Positions 23,778 through 32,162 of a stretch of 33,161 nt of DNA are shown here, one piece after another. Below the pieces are notes generated by a model. The model was not told the DNA's origin and made no database searches. It saw only the letters and a program-made list of their open reading frames with translations. The stretch's first letter is position 1, and every line of letters begins with the position of its first letter. The position numbers and the translations under genes are program-made. Origin of the DNA: Patescibacteria group bacterium (GTDB taxonomy: Bacteria; Patescibacteriota; Minisyncoccia; Phycocordibacterales; Zambryskibacteraceae); assembly GCA_038058745.1 (NCBI GenBank), contig JBBUAI010000011.1:1-33161 (forward strand), in the 5' to 3' direction.

Positions 23778-23849
23778 GGCCCTATCGTCTATCGGCTAGG
23801 ACACAGCCTTCTCAAGGCTGTAAGCGGAGTTCGATTCTCCGTAGGGTCA
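23778..23849 (+). tRNA. tRNA-Glu(CTC), CCA not encoded
   Basis: Acceptor GGCCCTA/TAGGGTC, anticodon arm CAGCC-TTCTCAA-GGCTG, T arm CGGAG-TTCGATT-CTCCG. Confidence 0.95.
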
Positions 23850-23988
23850 CATTCAGAAACTTCGGCAAGACTGAGCGAAATTCCGGCGGACGCCTTCGGC
23901 GTGTAGTGGTGTAGATAAAGGAATTCCAGCTTGCGGGTCTTGGCGAAAATGGAGGGTGGGCAAAATGAGATTGAGATAGTTTTATCTC

Positions 23989-25758
23989 TTAAAGCGGGGT
24001 TCGTTCCGAGAAATGGTCTTCAATAACTTTTTCGGCAAGATCTTTGAACCGATCAAGCCCTGCTGTGGCTTCCGGTGCGTTTCGCTCTACATGTCGTTCT
24101 GGGAAACCTATGTTTTTATCTTTCGCTTTTTTGTGTATTCCTTTCTTATCTCGCCATTCATAAAGTGCTCTGGTTGGACTTGAACCTTTATAATAAATAA
24201 TTTTAGACGGCCTCTTTGCCGGATTTTCTGCAAAATGTGCCTCCCAGAATTCTTTTGAATTTATTGCGTTCTCGGCTTCTACATACAAAACTCCCTCTTT
24301 TTTCATTGAACTCTCGATAACTGAATCGACCGAATGAAATGGATCTTCCTCTCCATTTTCCTCACCTCGTTTTTGAACATCGAGACTGAATAAGTTATGG
24401 TAATTAAGTATGGCTATCTGAACTCGCCTGTCAGTTATGCCAAATTCCTGCTCTAATCTTTGGCGAAAGGGTTCTAATCTCTCTAGCAACTCTCTATTTT
24501 TTGGTAACAGATTAGGGCTATCCCAATTTTGATTGAGCTTACCTGTTATTTCCATAACTTGATTTGCGAAATTATAAAAATCAGGTGAATCCACCACTTT
24601 CCTGAAAACACTTTGATATTCAGAGTTTTTGATAGGATTTCCGTCTTTATCAAGTTTATAGCGCGACCCAGTTTTGTTATCAACTTTTGCTTCTTCTGGA
24701 ATAAAGACTAGTCCAGCGTTCAAATCCATACCCCTTTCTTCATTGGCCCAAACTCATTGATCATTCCAATATCCTCCACCGGCTTCATTTAGCTGTCCGT
24801 TAAAATAATATTGTGAAGCAATATATGCAGATGGATAAGCAACAAAAATTTCATTTCCTTTTTCTGAGCCATAATAATAATCAGCAACCTCTTCTGTAGC
24901 AAAATGAATTGCCATCCTATCTGTATAGCTTCCTCCTTCTGCCTGATTCGCTTCTGTCATATTGGCAAGATGTTCCAAAGCTTCCTTTTTAGTGGAAAAT
25001 TTATCCAGGTTAAGAAATTTTGCTATGGCCTTATCTTTCTCTCCTTCGACGAGGTGAACGCCAAGAGGCGAGCGCAATCTTCCGTCTTCCGCCATTTTCA
25101 TAAATCCATCAACATAAGCTCCTTCACCAGCAGTATGATACATGTGTCCAATATGATCTCTGATTCCTTGTCGAGTGACGTGTGCCACCATTTCTTCAGG
25201 AAATCTCTTGAGTAAAAGCGAGTAATCTTCAAGTGGTAAAGATGCTAAATGTTCTTCGGAAAAATATTTAGTTATATCTTCCTTTGTATACTCACTTTCA
25301 GTCCATTTTCTTTTCTGCTCTTTGTAGAAATTACCAAGCATAACTTTTGCTTCCTGTAATGCTGGTGCCGTTTCTTCTGAAACTAGCTTTTCAGAAATCG
25401 CTCGTTCCTCAATAGTTTCGGCCTCTTGTTGTTGACTTAATTCCTCAAATGTTTTTTGCCCTACAGCGACATCGGCTCTAAGCTTTCTTAATTGAAAATA
25501 ATTTAAAATCTTTCCAAGTCCAGAAGTAGAAAGTTCAATAATTTCATTTTCTAGATCGTGAACAGCTTCCAGCTGTTCCGCTATAGCCCGTTCACGCTCG
25601 TTCGTAGTTTCTTCTAACTCCGTTTGTCTTTCTGTTTGAGCGTCTTTTTCTGTAAAATATTCTGCTCGCTTCGCCCTAATTGCTCGGGCTGTTTGCTGTC
25701 GCTCTTCCGGCGACTCTTCTTTAGAAAACTCCTTTATAAATTGTGGTGGCTTCTCCAT
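23989..25758 (-). pseudogene. Single hypothetical gene (about 589 codons) split by one in-frame TGA at 24756-24754
   Basis: ORFs 24754-25758 and 23989-24729 share a frame: ...YWNDQ*VWANEERGMDLN... Confidence 0.7.
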
Positions 25759-28487
25759 TATTTAACAGCTAAACTCTGATACTTAGCCATAATAGCTGTT
25801 TCCACTTCTGCCTTATCGCGGCCGTATTTTGCCGAAGATAACTTCTTAACAATTTCAATATTTGCTGGATCGCCAGTCTGTTTTGGCATTAGGCGGATAT
25901 CAAATGGCTCGACAGGTTTGCCGTGCACAAGCATTTTGATATAAGCATTGAAGTTATCGATACTTGCTAAGTCTTGGGCTGTAAAGTTTGGAGCAAATTG
26001 CTTCTCTAGATATTCAGCATTATCTTGCCCGACTCGGAAAGCGCAAATAGTGCCAACATTTCCAAACACAGCATTTTTGATCTCGTCTTGAAGCTGGGCG
26101 ATGAACTGGTGGGCAATGGTAAGAGAGAGCTTGTATTTCCTAGCTTCTGAGAGAATAGTGGCGATGGAGTTGGTAGTGATATTCTGGAACTCGTCAATGT
26201 AGAGATAAAACGGTGGTAGGTTTTGGCCTAGTGAATCTACACGTGAAAGCGCGGCCATCAAAATTTTGCCCACAAGAATTAGGCCGATAAGATTGGCATT
26301 TATGTCTCCTAATCTGCCTTTTGAAAGATTTACCAAAAGGATTTTCTTGCTGTCCATAATTTCACGGAAATTGAATGAGGATTTCTCTTGAGCGATTATC
26401 GGACGCATAATGTCATTGGCCAGAAAAACATCAAACTTGGAAGTGATGTATGGAACCATATTCACAAGCGCCGCTTCGCCTCCGGCCTTGCCGGCGATCT
26501 CATTCCAGAACTGGACGACTACCGGATTCTTGCAGCGAGAAATTTTGAGATCCCGGTATTCCTTGCTAGACATCACTCTAGAAACGTCCAGCAAGGTCGA
26601 ACCGGATTCCGGGTCTTCTATCACAAGCATCGTGGCATTTCTGAAGTATTGCTCGAACATCGGTCCCATAGATTCCGGCACTCCGCCATAGAGCTTTTGG
26701 AAGATGTTAAAGAGCTCATTGACCACGAAGGTCTTCTGCTCCGGGAAATGAGGATCGTATTCCAGCATATTGAGAGCCATCGGCCTATCAAGAGAGGCGG
26801 GGTCAAAATAAATCACATCTTCCAAACGCTCTTTAGGGATTTGAGAAAGCACATCTAAAACATCTGAGCCATGCGGGTCTATCATGCACACACCCTCACC
26901 TTTTTTAATGTCATCTACGATCATATTTTTAAGCAGAGTAGATTTACCTGTGCCTGTCTGGCCAATGGCATAGAAATGCCTCAAGCGGTCTTCTGGCGCG
27001 ATATGGATCTGCTTCTCGACGCCCTGAAAGGCATTTATTCCAAGAAGCGTGCCGACTTCTGAAATTCCGATCGGAGGCGGGGCGCTTCTTGAGCTAGAGC
27101 GAGAAAGAGTGGAGCTTGAAGCAAGCGCTTCGGTGTGGAAATGGAGGATAGTAGAGAGTTCTATAAGATTTAGGGGCATTTTCTCACTATCTTTGAACAT
27201 CCTAAAAATAAATGCCTGATAAAATTCCGAATCTTTAAAGGCAAAAAGTCCTGACGCCTTAGCTCTTTGCCACTTAATAGATTGCTTACCTGGATTTTCA
27301 AATTGATTAAAGGCAGACTCAAAGTTGTGCATCAGTCCTTCTGATTCGGCTTCCGTCGGAGTGGAGATCGCTAAGCGTATATTTGTTTCTACTATCGGAC
27401 TCCCAAGCTTCTTTTTGACCGCTTCCAGGACAGACTGGTCTATGATTGGAGGATTCTCTTCTTTTTCTTTTTTCTTACTGAAAAATGCTTCTCCTATAGT
27501 TCTGGTAAATTCCATAGCCAAGCTATCATCACGCAAGGCTTCTTTAGGGCTTTCTCCCTTCTCAATCTTTTTTAAAGCGCTCTCAAACTTTTTTGTATAA
27601 GTATCTCCGATCGGCTTAAAGACGATTTGGAGAGTGGCTCCGGCGCCTACTTTAGGAATTTTAGAAAAGCCGTTGAGAATAACATTGAGTGGATCAGAAC
27701 CAAAGTTATCAAAAGTTTTTAGTGGATAGGCAGGAGAGGATGAAAGTGAAGCGCTAGCTCCCAGAGTAGTACCAAATTCGTTAAAAATATTATAGTCGTG
27801 TTCTCGAGGAACGAGTTTAGCTTTCGGAAAAATAGCAAGGAGCTGTTTGCTGAATAATTCTTTTCTCGCTTCCGGCACAGAAACAAAGGCTCTTGTGTCC
27901 TCCTCTCCATCTGGATTAGCAATTTCAAAAACTAAATGGCTTACTTTATCCTTCTTATCTCCGGTAATAGAGAGCAAACCGGCATAAAACTGCTCCATAC
28001 TCTTTATAAGCTCGACTAACGGCTTTTCGTTCTCCTTTACTTCCTTCGGTAGAACTATTTCAAAAAGGCGCATATGCAGGGCTTGATAAATTGGGCCAGT
28101 TTCTTTTATAGCAACTGGCAAATCTTGTATGACACGATCGATAAGGAAAGCGTGGAAGTCATCTTCTGAACGCCAGTCCTTAATTTTTTCTACCACCGAA
28201 AGTGCATGAGAAATACCTTTAGCTTCTGCTAGAGTCATCATTTCTTGAAGCTGGGTTTCCTGATGTTTTTCTAGAATCTGTTCGGCATCCTTCTCAATTT
28301 CTGGCGTTTGAGCTACAGGCGCACCTATACCAGCTTCTTTTTTGAACTCTGCAATAGATTCGCGGACCACAGACACTCTCTCCGTCTCCGCTCCGGCGCT
28401 CCCCAGCTTCTTTTCGGCCTCCAAGACCTTAGAGCGCAAGTATTCAAGTTCCTGTTCGGGGGTGGTAAATTTTAGCCCTTCTGACAT
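25758..28487 (-). CDS. Large TrwB/TraD/VirB4-like (FtsK-HerA superfamily) P-loop ATPase
   Basis: RH...IGQTGTGKS (Walker A), IDPHG, YIDEFQN (Walker B), SEARKY.L.L..AHQ..AQL. TATAAT lies 6 nt before the ATG at 28487. Confidence 0.88.
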   Translation of the reverse strand: MSEGLKFTTPEQELEYLRSKVLEAEKKLGSAGAETERVSVVRESIAEFKKEAGIGAPVAQTPEIEKDAEQILEKHQETQLQEMMTLAEAKGISHALSVVEKIKDWRSEDDFHAFLIDRVIQDLPVAIKETGPIYQALHMRLFEIVLPKEVKENEKPLVELIKSMEQFYAGLLSITGDKKDKVSHLVFEIANPDGEEDTRAFVSVPEARKELFSKQLLAIFPKAKLVPREHDYNIFNEFGTTLGASASLSSSPAYPLKTFDNFGSDPLNVILNGFSKIPKVGAGATLQIVFKPIGDTYTKKFESALKKIEKGESPKEALRDDSLAMEFTRTIGEAFFSKKKEKEENPPIIDQSVLEAVKKKLGSPIVETNIRLAISTPTEAESEGLMHNFESAFNQFENPGKQSIKWQRAKASGLFAFKDSEFYQAFIFRMFKDSEKMPLNLIELSTILHFHTEALASSSTLSRSSSRSAPPPIGISEVGTLLGINAFQGVEKQIHIAPEDRLRHFYAIGQTGTGKSTLLKNMIVDDIKKGEGVCMIDPHGSDVLDVLSQIPKERLEDVIYFDPASLDRPMALNMLEYDPHFPEQKTFVVNELFNIFQKLYGGVPESMGPMFEQYFRNATMLVIEDPESGSTLLDVSRVMSSKEYRDLKISRCKNPVVVQFWNEIAGKAGGEAALVNMVPYITSKFDVFLANDIMRPIIAQEKSSFNFREIMDSKKILLVNLSKGRLGDINANLIGLILVGKILMAALSRVDSLGQNLPPFYLYIDEFQNITTNSIATILSEARKYKLSLTIAHQFIAQLQDEIKNAVFGNVGTICAFRVGQDNAEYLEKQFAPNFTAQDLASIDNFNAYIKMLVHGKPVEPFDIRLMPKQTGDPANIEIVKKLSSAKYGRDKAEVETAIMAKYQSLAVK

Positions 28488-28619
28488 AGGGACATTATAG
28501 CTCAAACTTGTCCTAGGGATATGCCCAACGGCTCATATAGATAAGCCGCCGTTGGGCTATGGTTGCGTTTTCCTGCTCAAAGGATAGAATTAAGCCATTA
28601 AATATTAAACAACAAAAAC

Positions 28620-29198
28620 ATGGGAATGGAAGGAGCACCACAGATGCCAGCTACTCCAGACGAATCTGAGAGAGTGGAAGATGTTGAAAAAGCCCAAGTT
28701 ATGGCAGAGGCGGAAATCAGAGGAGGGGAGTATGCAAAAATGGCAAACGAAATAGCGGAAGATGGAAGAGGCGCAGTTATTGAAAATAGAGATGTGTATG
28801 GAGATTTAAAGTCAAAATCACTCGGTCCGCGACAATTTGGGCCCGAAACAACGGAAAAAGAGATGAGAGCAGCATTTGGAGAGGCGGCCGAAAGTGCCAC
28901 AAAAACAGCTGAAGAACATAGAGAAAAAGCTGGTAAGTATTACGACTCTGTAAAAAATGTTTTCAGCGGATTAGAGGGAGATCCGGCAAGAGAATCTCTT
29001 TTGCAACAAAAAGCCCTGGAATATCTTAAGACCGAAGATGCAGAGTACTTCAATAGAGAATTTTCTGGAGAGTTGGATGAAGAAGGCTATCTTTATAAGA
29101 AAGATGGAACCACTTCAAACACTAAGCCTAGTCAAAATATTGGAGGTGGCTTGGCTATGGAGAAAGTGATGCAAATGGTAAGGGCTGAACTTAAATAA
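28620..29198 (+). CDS. Hypothetical acidic protein
   Basis: 192-aa ORF; putative promoter TTGCGT (28563) and TAGAAT (28585) upstream. Confidence 0.7.
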   Translation: MGMEGAPQMPATPDESERVEDVEKAQVMAEAEIRGGEYAKMANEIAEDGRGAVIENRDVYGDLKSKSLGPRQFGPETTEKEMRAAFGEAAESATKTAEEHREKAGKYYDSVKNVFSGLEGDPARESLLQQKALEYLKTEDAEYFNREFSGELDEEGYLYKKDGTTSNTKPSQNIGGGLAMEKVMQMVRAELK

Positions 29199-29401
29199 TG
29201 GATCAGGATATCCATAAAAAATTTTCTGGCCACTTATGCAGTAAATGCGGCGGCCCTGCTCCGGGGTGGAAATGTCCGGCTTGTGGCGTGACAGCAACAG
29301 CTTTCGATTCCTCTCACGCGCTTACCTGCCTAGCCAAAGGTAGTATAGAAGCTCAATGCCAGAAATGTGGCCAGGCTGAATCAAGATGCACGTGTGTTTA
29401 A
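29198..29401 (+). CDS. Small Cys-rich (zinc-binding) protein
   Basis: CSKC, CPAC, H...C, CQKC, CTC; TAATG coupling to the upstream gene. Confidence 0.7.
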   Translation: MDQDIHKKFSGHLCSKCGGPAPGWKCPACGVTATAFDSSHALTCLAKGSIEAQCQKCGQAESRCTCV

Positions 29402-29410
29402 ATTTATCCT

Positions 29411-29689
29411 ATGGTCTTACTATATTTAATAATCGGAGCGGTGGTTGGATATGCACTTGGTTTTATGAGGGGTGTCAAAACATGTGCGGAATCTGAGGTG
29501 AATAGAGAACGCAATGAAAAGATCATGGAACTTTTTGAAGGAAAAGATTCCATTAACAATGATGATATTCAGAAATTGTTGGGGGTATCGGACGCTAGCG
29601 CAACTAGATACCTAGACGAACTAGAAAAGGAAGGAAAAGTTAAACAAGTAGGTAAAACTGGCAAGCATGTGTATTACGAAAAAGCTTAA
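29411..29689 (+). CDS. Membrane-anchored winged-HTH protein (DeoR-like HTH / DUF977-like)
   Basis: N-terminal TM; INNDDIQKLLGVSDASATRYLDELEKEGK. Confidence 0.8.
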   Translation: MVLLYLIIGAVVGYALGFMRGVKTCAESEVNRERNEKIMELFEGKDSINNDDIQKLLGVSDASATRYLDELEKEGKVKQVGKTGKHVYYEKA

Positions 29690-30180
29690 TGACAGAAGAA
29701 ACAGCACAGCCAAGCGTGGTAAGTGAGCCAGTAGTTGAACCCGCACCTATTCCCGAGCCAGTTGCTGTAGAACCAGTACCTGAACCTCAACCTACCGAAC
29801 CAACTCCAACGGCTCAACCCGTTGAGCCGTTGGAGCCTGAGCCTATTTCTGAACCAGAGCCCATCCCCGAACCCACTCCTGAGCCTGTTTCTGTAAATCC
29901 TGAACCTCTGCCGGTTATCCTTTCTGGGCCACTCATAACAAAACAAGACAGCCGATCACTCCTCGCAAAAGCCAGAGACATAATTCAGTTCCGAAAGCGT
30001 AAGAAACTTGAGAAGATAATGAACTTGTTCCTGAAAAAGCAGAGTATCACTAACGATGAAGTAGAGAAACTTCTGCATATCTCTGATGCCACAGCTACCA
30101 GATATCTGGACCAACTGGAACGTGAAGGAAAGATACAGAAACAAGGAAATGGTAAGTATGTGTCGTATGTAAGAATCTAA
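29689..30180 (+). CDS. Pro/Glu-rich low-complexity protein with C-terminal winged-HTH (paralog of the upstream gene)
   Basis: EP repeats, then ITNDEVEKLLHISDATATRYLDQLEREGK; TAATG coupling. Confidence 0.8.
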   Translation: MTEETAQPSVVSEPVVEPAPIPEPVAVEPVPEPQPTEPTPTAQPVEPLEPEPISEPEPIPEPTPEPVSVNPEPLPVILSGPLITKQDSRSLLAKARDIIQFRKRKKLEKIMNLFLKKQSITNDEVEKLLHISDATATRYLDQLEREGKIQKQGNGKYVSYVRI

Positions 30181-30187
30181 GGGAGTA

Positions 30188-30915
30188 AGCTCACTGACCT
30201 AACGACTAAGTGAGCTAGTGCGCGCACGGGTGGCGTGGGGCAAGCACAAGAGTAATGAGCTCGGGCTGTTTCCGCTAGGGCGTCTGGACTACACGAACGC
30301 CGACGTTAAACGAAGTTTCTGTAAGTAATAGCGAAAGCTACACCCTGCAAGTATAATGTAAACAAGGAGAGGGGTTGTGCGAGGGTGGACTCCGAAGGCA
30401 CGCAATACAAGCCACTTTCTCTAAGAAAAGATAAAGATTAGACAGCACTATAAACTCCAAACCACCTCTGCGAGGAGGAGACCGAAGCTGGGGAGAGGAA
30501 CCTCTCCTCTCCCCAAAGAGAAGCGGGTAGGGCTTGCGGCTCATTTACCCGGTATTTGAGCCGCAAGCTAAACTACCCGCACATAGGCATCTAGGCGCTC
30601 GTAGGCCATAGCGGAAACAGCCCGAGGCGGATGCCGAGTGGTGCACCCGTAGTCCTGACTTAAAGCCAGACCGAGCACAATGCATATTGCCTTCCTAGCC
30701 GAGCCCCATCGCTCATACTTCTGAAAAAATCCAACCCCCGCCAACTCTAAAAAGAATGGAAGCGATGGGGCGAGACAAGCCCAGCGCCGAAGGCGCTGGG
30801 CGAAAGTTAGCACATTAGTGGAGCGTAGTAGGAGGTCTAAAGTTAAAAGGAATACGAAGCGTGCACCTTAACCTTGAGACTGGAAATAAGTTCGAGCAAA
30901 GATGATAATATGGTC
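30188..30915 (+). ncRNA. Candidate large structured RNA 1 (about 700 nt; family unknown; boundaries approximate)
   Basis: No credible ORF. Perfect 18-bp long-range helix 30260-30277/30609-30626, continued by 30278-30287/30591-30600 with G-U pairs valid on +. Several internal hairpins and GNRA loops. Confidence 0.6.
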
Positions 30916-30919
30916 ACAG

Positions 30920-30951
30920 TTATCAACAAATTATGCACAGAATTATCCAGA
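30920..30951 (+). promoter_or_regulatory. Three tandem DnaA-box-like 9-mers
   Basis: TTATCAACA (30920), TTATGCACA (30931), TTATCCAGA (30943); each is one mismatch from TTATCCACA. Confidence 0.55.
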
Positions 30952-30959
30952 TAATCAAG

Positions 30960-30988
30960 TTGACAGCTAAAAGGACTTTTGATAACCT
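30960..30988 (+). promoter_or_regulatory. Sigma70 promoter for RNA 2
   Basis: TTGACA (30960-30965), 17 bp spacer, TAACCT (30983-30988) preceded by TGn. Confidence 0.75.
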
Positions 30989-30995
30989 CTTAGGC

Positions 30996-31368
30996 AGATC
31001 AGGGCGCTAAAAGCTGTTTGGATAGGAGTGAGTGGAGCAACTCACTTTCTGGACCTCTTCGAAAGGGGAGGCCTAACAATGGCAAACAGTAATATGTGCC
31101 TGTCGACTCCGGTGTCGTGTATCGGCAAGGTGTGCGGGTAAAACTGCACTCTGGCCGAAGCAGGCCCGGGTTGTCGAGGTCTCGTCTCAGGACTCCGAAT
31201 ACGATCTCCAGTCGTAGATGGAAATGGGATACCGTAACGCAGAGATGTGTTCCGGGGCAAGGTCAGGGGGCAGGTGGAAATCCTGCGGGTTGATCCAAAG
31301 TGATCTAATGCCGTTGGCGTAACAGCTGACGAAACAAAAATCACGGTGGAGAAACCCACCCCTGGTCT
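30996..31368 (+). ncRNA. Candidate large structured RNA 2 (about 373 nt; family unknown)
   Basis: Starts at the expected TSS. 5' AGATCAGGG pairs with 3' CCCTGGTCT; nested hairpins throughout; terminator follows. Confidence 0.72.
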
Positions 31369-31394
31369 TAGCGAAGCTCTTTATGCAAACCCTC

Positions 31395-31425
31395 GGCCAC
31401 TTCCGGTCGGGTGGTTTTTTGTTTT
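31395..31425 (+). terminator. Intrinsic terminator after RNA 2
   Basis: GGCCACTT-CCGGTC-GGGTGGTT followed by TTTTGTTTT. Confidence 0.7.
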
Positions 31426-31436
31426 ATAGTATCTAT

Positions 31437-31691
31437 ATGTTAACTTTCAAAGAAAAAGTCTACGCAGTAGTAAGGAAAATTCCGAAGGGGAAAGTTTTGA
31501 CGTATCAAGAATTAGCGAGAAGGGCAGGGAAGCCGAAGGCGTATCGGGCAGTGGGTAATATTTTAAATAAAAATTTCGATCCCAAGATTCCCTGCCACCG
31601 CGTCATCCGTTCGGATGGCAAGCTCGGTGGTTACAATAGAGGAGAGAAGGCGAAGCTTTCAAAATTAAAAGCGGAAGGGTACCTGAAATAG
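31437..31691 (+). CDS. Minimal O6-methylguanine-DNA methyltransferase (MGMT C-terminal domain only)
   Basis: IPKGKVLTY..LA, RAVG, IPCHRV active site, GGY. TATAGT lies 6 nt before the ATG. Confidence 0.9.
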   Translation: MLTFKEKVYAVVRKIPKGKVLTYQELARRAGKPKAYRAVGNILNKNFDPKIPCHRVIRSDGKLGGYNRGEKAKLSKLKAEGYLK

Positions 31692-31695
31692 TTTA

Positions 31696-31723
31696 AGGGC
31701 GGGCCACAGTAGTGGCCCGCCCT
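31696..31723. terminator. Perfect 12-bp GC-rich hairpin (likely terminator)
   Basis: AGGGCGGGCCAC-AGTA-GTGGCCCGCCCT. Confidence 0.65.
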
Positions 31724-31852
31724 CTTCACCTTCTACTCCTCGAACCTTGGCTCGGTACGCCAGTTCTCTTTCTCTGCGAGTACATCCAGGCGCTCCTGGA
31801 CACCCGCTCCTGCTGCGCAATTACTGAACGCCGCTCGAACCTTTTTTGCCTA

Positions 31853-32091
31853 CCCGTCCGAAGCTCTTGAGCGAAGGCGGGAACGCAATCCCGAATGATG
31901 CCGCGCCTGCCTGCCCGCCAAAGCCTTGGCGATGGAGGGCGGCGCGGTAGAAACCAAACCGCTCCGCCGCCGTTGAAACTTTGGCGGACAAGTCGGGCGG
32001 AGCGGGAAGGAAAGGGAGTTTGGGGGGAAGGAATTTTTGCCCGCCCTCGCTTTCCGCCGCCGCCGAATTTCGTGCCAACGAAGTTGGCGCA
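31853..32091. repeat. Cluster of REP-like GC-rich imperfect palindromes
   Basis: CCCGTC-CGAAGCTCTTGAGCGAA-GGCGGG, CGCCAA-AGCC-TTGGCG, CCGCCG-TTGAAACT-TTGGCGG, GTGCCAAC-GAA-GTTGGCGC. Confidence 0.6.
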
Positions 32092-32162
32092 CCACAGAAG
32101 TTATTGATGTTTCTAAATTCTAACCTTTATGGTATCATTAAAGCAACATTTAATCAAAAATT

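Follow-up and report, generated by a model that had tools for sequence, protein, structure and literature searches.

A candidate gene for a structured non-coding RNA, apparently of a new family, in part of one Parcubacteria genus

Introduction

What does a stretch of DNA encode when it carries a promoter and a terminator and, between them, no convincing protein? The question is raised by the right-hand end of a 33,161-nucleotide (nt) contig (JBBUAI010000011.1, assembly GCA_038058745.1; hereafter the window, meaning the whole stretch at its full length) from a Patescibacteria group bacterium, whose genome, 407 kb in 25 contigs and 82% complete, is referred to as G000. Positions 30960-31420 of the plus strand of this window read as a complete non-coding transcription unit. 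An earlier note on this DNA had taken the interval for a structured RNA gene of unrecognised family with a tRNA-like 3' end, to be understood either as a new large non-coding RNA class or as a very divergent housekeeping RNA.

Our analysis indicates that the interval from about 30995 to 31420 (plus strand) is probably a gene that is transcribed on its own and yields a folded non-coding RNA whose family has not been catalogued. This conclusion draws on the transcription unit, on its predicted fold, on homologues in which base pairs are kept, and on the absence of both a conserved coding frame and a match to any Rfam family. Within the searches made, the family is confined to part of one Parcubacteria genus, whose members are labelled Candidatus Zambryskibacteria; the affiliation follows the names of the close homologues of a neighbouring gene product, PBP, which point to Candidatus Zambryskibacteria and Parcubacteria.

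A transcription unit without a conserved coding frame

The unit is delimited by three features:

30960-30988, plus strand: predicted promoter of the RNA, with -35 TTGACA, a 17-nt spacer and an extended -10, TG-A-TAACCT
30995-31420, plus strand: the RNA, about 425 nt, with its 5' end placed from the promoter (+/- 3 nt) and its 3' end from the terminator T run
31392-31420, plus strand: intrinsic terminator, a T run preceded by stems at 31392-31411 and 31395-31416

A perfect TTGACA at 30960-30965 is followed, after the 17-nt spacer, by TGATAACCT at 30980-30988, in which the hexamer TAACCT occupies 30983-30988. A consensus promoter scan did not list this site, because TAACCT agrees with TATAAT at just three of six positions; the case for the promoter being real is that it is conserved in position among relatives. 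TTGAC and TGATA(A/G) hold their places in five RNA-bearing genomes from both clades of the family described below (G000, G003, G019, G009 and G002), and the spacer between them varies. At the other end, a GC-rich hairpin with a T run occurs in the same place in all seven known members, with differing stem sequences. Promoter and terminator therefore stay in position among relatives whose intervening sequence has diverged, and the unit proposed in the earlier note, from TTGACA-17-TGnTAACCT to a terminator at 31395, is borne out at both ends. Homology with the genome G003 runs from 30918 to 31441, with different genes on either flank. A contig from a second, independent study spans 30735-31066 with zero differences, which checks the assembly junction at 30917.

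Open frames of 37-105 amino acids (aa) do exist inside the region, among them a 105-aa minus-strand frame at 31042-31359, and these raise the question of a small protein. Comparison among members makes that explanation hardly credible, as no reading frame is kept: from one to another of the six full members, the longest stop-free frame switches strand and phase, alignment gaps are mostly not multiples of three (6 of 6, 9 of 11, 10 of 12 and 10 of 12 gaps in four pairwise alignments), and tblastx scores are similar across all frames. The earlier judgement that no credible protein is present agrees with these comparisons.

Homologues and distribution

Of 61 relatives searched with BLAST, three have the element, as do three of the 37 genomes of the genus (G000, G003 and G019). 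Four sequences served to build a first covariance model of the 3' core (R1), which added G009 (52 bits), G007 (36 bits) and G002 (30.9 bits), bringing the count to 6 of 37 genus genomes, and a second such model built from all seven sequences (R2) recovered the same six. Together with two metagenome contigs from one scan, L246 (identical to G003 here) and L247, these species genomes give seven distinct homologues of 292-526 nt. L247 is a short form of 292 nt without the middle arm; G003 and G000 measure 423-428 nt, and G019, G009 and G002 measure 524-526 nt. A third locus of the metagenome scan, L248, was set aside as a chance match. The homologue search that the earlier note had proposed thus yielded relatives with compensatory base changes.

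As a separate observation on the short form, positions 1440-1520 of L247 hold a partial tandem duplication of the first ~15 nt of the RNA (two AGGGTGCTAAA-type copies) on a contig that contains N; this may be a decaying copy or a low-quality assembly.

Wider searches returned no further members. R1 applied to a sample of 150 genomes of the order under strict filters gave no accepted member, and its lone match (G155, 22.4 bits) was rejected since it sits in an open frame of at least 598 aa. R2 gave zero matches in a sample of 150 genomes of the class, also under strict filters. BLAST against phages and plasmids found no match, a clade-2 pattern gave no hits in the viral collection, and nhmmer found no real homologue among ~230 loci gathered with unspecific patterns (one run on genome contigs and two clade-1 patterns run on viral sequences).

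PBP identity to G000 is 86% for G003, 72% for G019 and 66-68% for G002, G007 and G009. The identity of the RNA to that of G000 is 83% for G003 and 62% for G019, and falls below BLAST detection for clade 2. RNA identity therefore drops in step with PBP identity, which fits vertical descent with losses. Genomes at 73-83% PBP identity to G000 (G014, G005, G025, G030 and others) gave no RNA match. As judged from these sequences, the distribution would fit a long-standing presence of the RNA in the genus, followed by many losses.

Predicted fold and base-pair conservation

The plus strand of the RNA region has a predicted minimum free energy (MFE) of -184.1 kcal/mol, as against -141.4 +/- 5.7 in 100 dinucleotide shuffles (z -7.47; none of the 100 as good); for the minus strand z is -4.14. 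RNAalifold on three sequences kept 133 pairs, of which 24 are changed at both partners. Three parts can be distinguished:

31003-31100, plus strand: 5' domain, in which helices 31003-31007/31096-31100 and 31012-31020/31083-31091 enclose two hairpins, the second GAAA-capped
31103-31189, plus strand: variable middle arm, a long irregular hairpin in the MFE fold with the cap GTGCGG-GTAAAA-CTGCAC
31190-31368, plus strand: conserved 3' core, with hairpin 31201-31206/31212-31217, the motif AAAUGGGAUA, a GNRA-capped hairpin and a multi-helix junction

The 5' domain was compared over five sequences and 27 pairs; G019, G009 and G002 carry two extra hairpins within the domain. Paired cells amount to 87.6%, a share that drops to 36-50% once the partner is shifted by 1-3 columns; nine pairs are double-changed, compared with 6.5 +/- 1.6 in shuffles, and the covariation score of the domain was reached by none of 500 shuffles. 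Helices named in the earlier note fare well in this part of the molecule: GCTGTTTG/CAAACAGT (31013-31020/31083-31090) is present, its 31012-31017/31086-31091 portion being 93% paired over the five sequences, and the GAAA-capped hairpin is present with double changes at five pairs.

In the 3' core, a MAFFT alignment of seven sequences with 19 pairs has 95.5% of cells paired, compared with 33-53% after sliding. The junction is closed by UCAGGG at 31263-31268, which pairs with CCCUGG at 31360-31365, and includes a hairpin at 31270-31286, an arm at 31300-31344 with an inner stem (31312-31318/31325-31331), and a hairpin at 31345-31360. Three pairs of that inner stem show double changes, and a separate alignment of the 3'-core region has double changes in 8 of 44 pairs; the UCAGGG/CCCUGA closing helix and the GUGG/CCAC hairpin are invariant. 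A TACGAT/GTCGTA hairpin, also called previously, has double changes at three pairs (alignment columns 12-17 with 23-28). Inspection by eye adds that the helix closing the 3'-core arm covaries within clade 2 (CAAAAA/UUUUUG, CAACGA/UCGUUG and CAAAGA/UUUUUG), and that loops of the hairpins are frequently GNRA (GAAA, GCAA, GAGA, GUGA and GCGA). The previously described T-loop-like hairpin GCAGG-UGGAAAU-CCUGC is likewise found; by eye it becomes GCUGG...CCAGC in G003 and G019, an A-U to U-A swap, and is replaced in clade 2 by a substitute hairpin, UUGGGG-AACCU-CCCCAA.

Other elements of the structure first proposed are less secure. The long arm at 31103-31177 does appear in the MFE fold but is poorly conserved; the middle segment at ~31052-31187 is missing from L247 and longer in G019, G009 and G002. 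A terminal stem joining 30997-31003 to 31361-31367 forms in G000 but meets one or two mismatches in each other member, and this end-to-end stem competes with the invariant internal UCAGGG (31263-31268), which pairs with the same CCCUG. An alternative pairing of AGCTGTT with AACAGCT is broken in G003, which has AACAACC. The suggested tRNA-like 3' end found no counterpart: ARAGORN places neither tRNA nor tmRNA there, the tRNA and tmRNA covariance models do not match, and the acceptor plus T-arm geometry fails in that the 7-bp 'acceptor' stem is not preserved in relatives. The GGTGG...CCACC hairpin invoked as its T-arm has a 6-nt loop whose length and sequence vary among members. Taken together, the pairing statistics support a kept fold, short of proof.

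Comparison with known RNA families

The Rfam scan proposed in the earlier note gave a clear outcome. With the 4227 covariance models of Rfam 15, which include OLE, GOLLD, ROOL, raiA and HEARO, the window at the gathering threshold contains just its two tRNAs; at E <= 10, the interval 30100-31500 gives two chance-level hits that lie outside the element or at its edge, and at E <= 1 five homologous loci give tRNA-Glu only. The element itself therefore matches no family, even at E <= 10. ARAGORN also reports only the two tRNAs in the window, and neither a tRNA nor a tmRNA within the element.

Could the RNA nevertheless be an extremely divergent copy of RNase P RNA, tmRNA, signal recognition particle (SRP) RNA or 6S RNA, given its comparable size and its stand-alone gene with a promoter and terminator of its own? 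The genome already holds an RNase P RNA (RF00010; contig C14, 35657-36011, 103.6 bits) and a tmRNA (RF00023; contig C20, 8842-9257, 84.8 bits), both above cut-off, and the earlier exclusion of these two families stands on those loci together with the lack of a match in the element. Neither small nor large SRP RNA (RF00169, RF01854) was found in any of five genus genomes, nor was 6S RNA (RF00013) in the same five or in the window; the predicted fold of the present RNA is multi-branched, unlike the long irregular hairpin with a central bubble of 6S RNA. With the RNA found in just 6 of 37 genus species, a housekeeping role is unlikely, and we give the possibility of a disguised copy of any of these four next to no weight. 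The alternative wording of the earlier note, a new large non-coding RNA class, is fair insofar as it means a new family; the family is narrow and patchy, and is no widespread class.

The partner proteins of the SRP are missing as well: the Ffh M domain (SRP_SPB) and the SRP54 GTPase domain (Ffh/FtsY family) were each found in none of five genus genomes, and among 61 genomes of the order the SRP54 GTPase domain gave only P-loop-level matches of at most 24.1 bits. SRP loss in Parcubacteria is described in an earlier paper (PMC4508563), and its absence here is confirmation, not discovery. A divergent SRP RNA was accordingly dropped as a candidate. A Y-RNA-like molecule (YrlA) was also rejected, as no Ro/TROVE protein was found in the five RNA-bearing genomes searched and 30960-31425 has no tRNA-like match. 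A CsrB-like sponge was dismissed because GGA motifs show no enrichment. As to partners of guide or template RNAs (retron, IscB/TnpB, bridge RNA, tracrRNA), the immediate-flank proteins scanned contain no reverse transcriptase, nuclease or transposase domain; the neighbours are PBP, tRNA-Glu, the MGMT-like gene and unrelated genes that change from locus to locus. Literature search listings returned no paper on such an RNA in Patescibacteria or Zambryskibacteria.

Among described RNAs, those most similar in kind are the ornate RNAs (OLE, GOLLD, ROOL, raiA motif RNA and HEARO), which share a length of several hundred nucleotides, many conserved helices, GNRA-capped hairpins, their own promoter and terminator, and a sporadic distribution. 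GOLLD and ROOL are often found beside tRNA genes, and raiA motif RNA often lies just upstream of a gene without obvious regulation. The present RNA, however, matches none of their Rfam models, is far narrower in distribution (6 of 37 species of one genus), and was not found in the phage and viral collections. Bacterial RNase P RNA (RF00010) is similar in size, in its multi-domain fold and in being a stand-alone gene; however, its hallmark motifs are absent here, and a presence in 6 of 37 genus genomes is not what would be expected of an RNA with one essential copy per genome. With tmRNA the RNA shares a size range and a stem with an adjoining hairpin at its 3' end, but both tmRNA and Y RNA differ in the tRNA-like structure that ARAGORN does not find here, in an 'acceptor' stem that is not conserved, and, for Y RNA, in the missing TROVE protein. 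Terminator-type riboswitches (cobalamin, T-box) have the same succession of a structured RNA, an intrinsic terminator and a same-strand gene, and the T-loop-like hairpin GGUGRAAAUCC is one that we take to resemble an element of the cobalamin riboswitch. In contrast to riboswitches, the present RNA matches neither RF00174, RF00230 nor others, it has a length of 292-526 nt, and gene without RNA as well as RNA without gene occur.

Genomic neighbourhood

Two neighbours recur near the RNA, a tRNA-Glu(CUC) gene upstream and an MGMT-like gene downstream:

31437-31691, plus strand: MGMT-like gene, a neighbour outside the RNA (84 aa; PF01035, E 9.5e-30)

In G003 (and the identical L246), G019, L247, G009 and G002, PBP comes first, followed by an oppositely oriented tRNA-Glu(CUC) gene and then by the RNA. 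In G000 the tRNA-Glu(CUC) gene (23778-23850) shares the strand of the RNA and lies at a distance of 7 kb from it, with an island between them. This interval (23778-30917) contains a 915-aa gene resembling a type IV secretion system (T4SS) coupling protein (25758-28505, minus strand), two unassigned genes, the paralogous winged-helix genes 29411-29689 and 29689-30180, and a multi-copy element described at the end of this paper. The arrangement in G000 resembles the outcome of an inversion, or of an insertion, at a hot spot linked to the tRNA; the orientation of tRNA-Glu relative to the MGMT-like gene also flips in other genus members.

Given such surroundings, the RNA might have been left behind or carried in by an element, mobile or decaying, at this variable spot next to a tRNA, without a function of its own for the cell. 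Its presence is patchy, with RNA-bearing genomes at 66-86% PBP identity to G000 and genomes at 73-76% lacking it; the gap between tRNA-Glu and the MGMT-like gene has contents that differ among genomes (small open reading frames (ORFs), a 348-aa frame, or nothing); the ~7-kb island with its T4SS coupling-protein-like gene and multi-copy element lies just upstream in G000; and L247 is truncated with a partly duplicated 5' end. Integrating elements, however, usually insert at the 3' end of a tRNA, and the RNA lies on the 5' side. It is also single-copy in G000, its divergence tracks that of the hosts through all three steps given above, its promoter, terminator and base pairs are kept, and the phage, plasmid and viral collections hold no match. 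On balance we consider a functionless remnant improbable.

The MGMT-like gene raises a different possibility, namely that the RNA is a long, cis-acting, riboswitch-like leader of that gene, whose 3' core would sense a signal and whose terminator (31392-31420) would decide on read-through. The order and strand of RNA, terminator and MGMT-like reading are the same in G000, G019, G009, G002 and L247, the terminator ends ~15 nt ahead of the ATG, and the 3'-core junction, at ~115-125 nt, is of aptamer size. The gene stands directly after the terminator in G000, G019, G009 and G002; downstream of the RNA of L247 the MGMT-like reading is disrupted, and in G007 the gene begins ~430 nt downstream of the RNA, with an ATG-led reading after the terminator that is apparently another gene standing before it. 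G003 keeps the RNA and terminator, followed by other genes and by no MGMT-like gene there. Conversely, the gene is present in 22 of 37 genus genomes, mostly near tRNA-Glu, and the RNA in only 6.

Its transcription may also be separate. A -10-like TATAGT occupies 31425-31430, 6 nt ahead of the MGMT-like ATG, and a -10-like hexamer stands 6-9 nt before the start at 11 of 20 loci, made up of 4 of the 5 RNA-bearing and 7 of the 15 RNA-less ones. This occurrence irrespective of the RNA suggests that the MGMT-like gene is transcribed separately, as a leaderless message. Members differ in their terminator stems, no conserved alternative pairing between terminator and core was seen by eye, and no riboswitch family matches. 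A leader function for the gene thus appears unlikely.

Two side observations concern the same slot. In G031 and G035, which lack the RNA, the gap from tRNA-Glu to the MGMT-like gene carries CTTGACTTT...TATAAT followed by GC-rich inverted repeats, and this unit may be another small RNA. Downstream of the MGMT-like gene in the window, positions 31692-32162 form a 470-nt stretch with no convincing ORF that is single-copy in the genome and has the top G+C content of the region (0.59-0.645, as against ~0.40 around it).

The block upstream of the RNA

The sequence immediately before the promoter is more strongly conserved than the RNA itself:

30920-30959, both strands: upstream block with three tandem DnaA-box-like 9-mers and, on the minus strand, a promoter-like TTGATT-17-CATAAT

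The 45 nt at 30920-30964 are 100% identical in G000, G003 and G019, whose RNAs are 62-83% identical, and a 34-mer from the block is confined, among the 37 genus genomes, to three, each with a single occurrence. The 9-mers start at 30920 (TTATCAACA), 30931 (TTATGCACA) and 30943 (TTATCCAGA), 11-12 nt apart, and resemble a presumed DnaA-box consensus. In relatives this invariant block sits between the 5' end of the tRNA and the -35 of the RNA, and the minus-strand promoter-like site (30958-30930) faces the 5' end of the divergent tRNA-Glu.

It could be supposed that the RNA is tied to DnaA or replication control, the boxes either putting its transcription under DnaA or marking an origin at which the RNA acts. 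Beyond the regular spacing and the identity in three genomes, the middle 9-mer differs among members solely in having G, A or C at the one degenerate position of TTATNCACA, the block is one of two clusters in the 407-kb genome with at least three boxes (at most one mismatch), and it is intact in G000 although the tRNA no longer adjoins it. However, the 33-kb contig shows no GC-skew switch at the block, dnaA lies on a different contig from the RNA, and the promoter-like site facing tRNA-Glu on the opposite strand could alone explain the conservation. The box consensus is, moreover, a presumed one, and single TTATCCACA sites are scattered in intergenic regions. A link to DnaA therefore seems very unlikely, and a replication origin at the locus was rejected given that the contig has no skew switch.

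Elsewhere in G000, the other three-box cluster (C14:30408-30449) coincides with the cumulative GC skew maximum of its contig. Of the 13 sites that match TTATNCACA perfectly in this genome, nine read TTATCCACA; the sites are mostly intergenic and about half are preceded by AAG. The TTATCCACA sites may be DnaA sites or, on the other strand, part of a promoter motif (TGTGGATAA).

Possible mode of action

The most likely mode of action, in our analysis, is that of a folded RNA working in trans, ahead of the three functions or origins considered in the two preceding sections. A sigma-70-type promoter (TTGACA, 17 nt, TG-n-TAACCT) would start the transcript and the intrinsic terminator would end it; the RNA would fold into a 5' domain, where helices are nested and hairpins GNRA-capped, a variable, dispensable middle arm, and a conserved 3' core of ~180 nt arranged around the multi-helix junction; and its folded form would either serve as a scaffold for a protein or work as a structure of RNA alone, much as other large ornate bacterial RNAs do. 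The RNA is probably accessory rather than essential.

Several observations weigh against this picture. Among public runs, no RNA run is listed for this stretch, so that the promoter, the 5' end and expression are predictions from sequence, and the analysis turned up no partner protein or target. Patchy presence (6 of 37) at a variable hot-spot locus would also fit a decaying or mobile sequence, and an MGMT-like gene follows in six of the seven members, which leaves room for regulation by read-through. The covariation statistics are weak because there are just seven distinct, related sequences from a single genus: the nine double changes of the 5' domain were attained by 50 of 500 shuffles and the double-change count of the 3' core by 221 of 500. 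Several core helices are invariant and thus inaccessible to covariation, the middle domain does not align well between members (13 pairs, weak, with no pair count), and the structures compared were derived in part from the very alignments used for testing.

A bolder version, which we regard as doubtful, is that the RNA founds a new class of large functional Parcubacteria RNAs, ribozymes or self-assembling RNA-only structures, whose transcription would be set by the DnaA-box-like triplet and so be coupled to replication or growth state. The features behind this version are the many GNRA loops, the T-loop-like hairpin and the conserved multi-helix core.

Newly found large structured RNAs are rare, and each so far has raised questions about RNA without or with proteins. 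The hosts here are small groundwater bacteria with genomes of 0.4-0.6 Mb that have shed even the SRP, and it is therefore unlikely that an accessory RNA of 300-500 nt would lie idle there when several species have kept it together with promoter, terminator and base pairs. Although the family has few members and a narrow range, its present value is that of a well-delimited candidate with coordinates, seven members and two covariance models.

A second structured element upstream

Directly upstream of the RNA locus, positions 30181-30915 of the window (plus strand) hold a GC-rich stretch of ~460-730 nt without an ORF, which has a predicted fold with z -10.0 on the plus strand and -4.35 on the minus strand. 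It matches no Rfam family at E <= 10. Three copies with 78-85% identity are present in G000, the other two at C14:49342-49799 and C6:13559-13951 (both minus strand), and two of the three come after a small winged-helix gene. BLAST finds the element in 14 of 61 related genomes, including two other genera, with up to several copies in each. In three of four runs, metagenome contigs cover 30144-30705 to a depth ~4-9 times the flanking value. The three copies keep 89 predicted pairs, 10 of them with double changes. The element may be a mobile-element RNA or a repeat-borne non-coding RNA.

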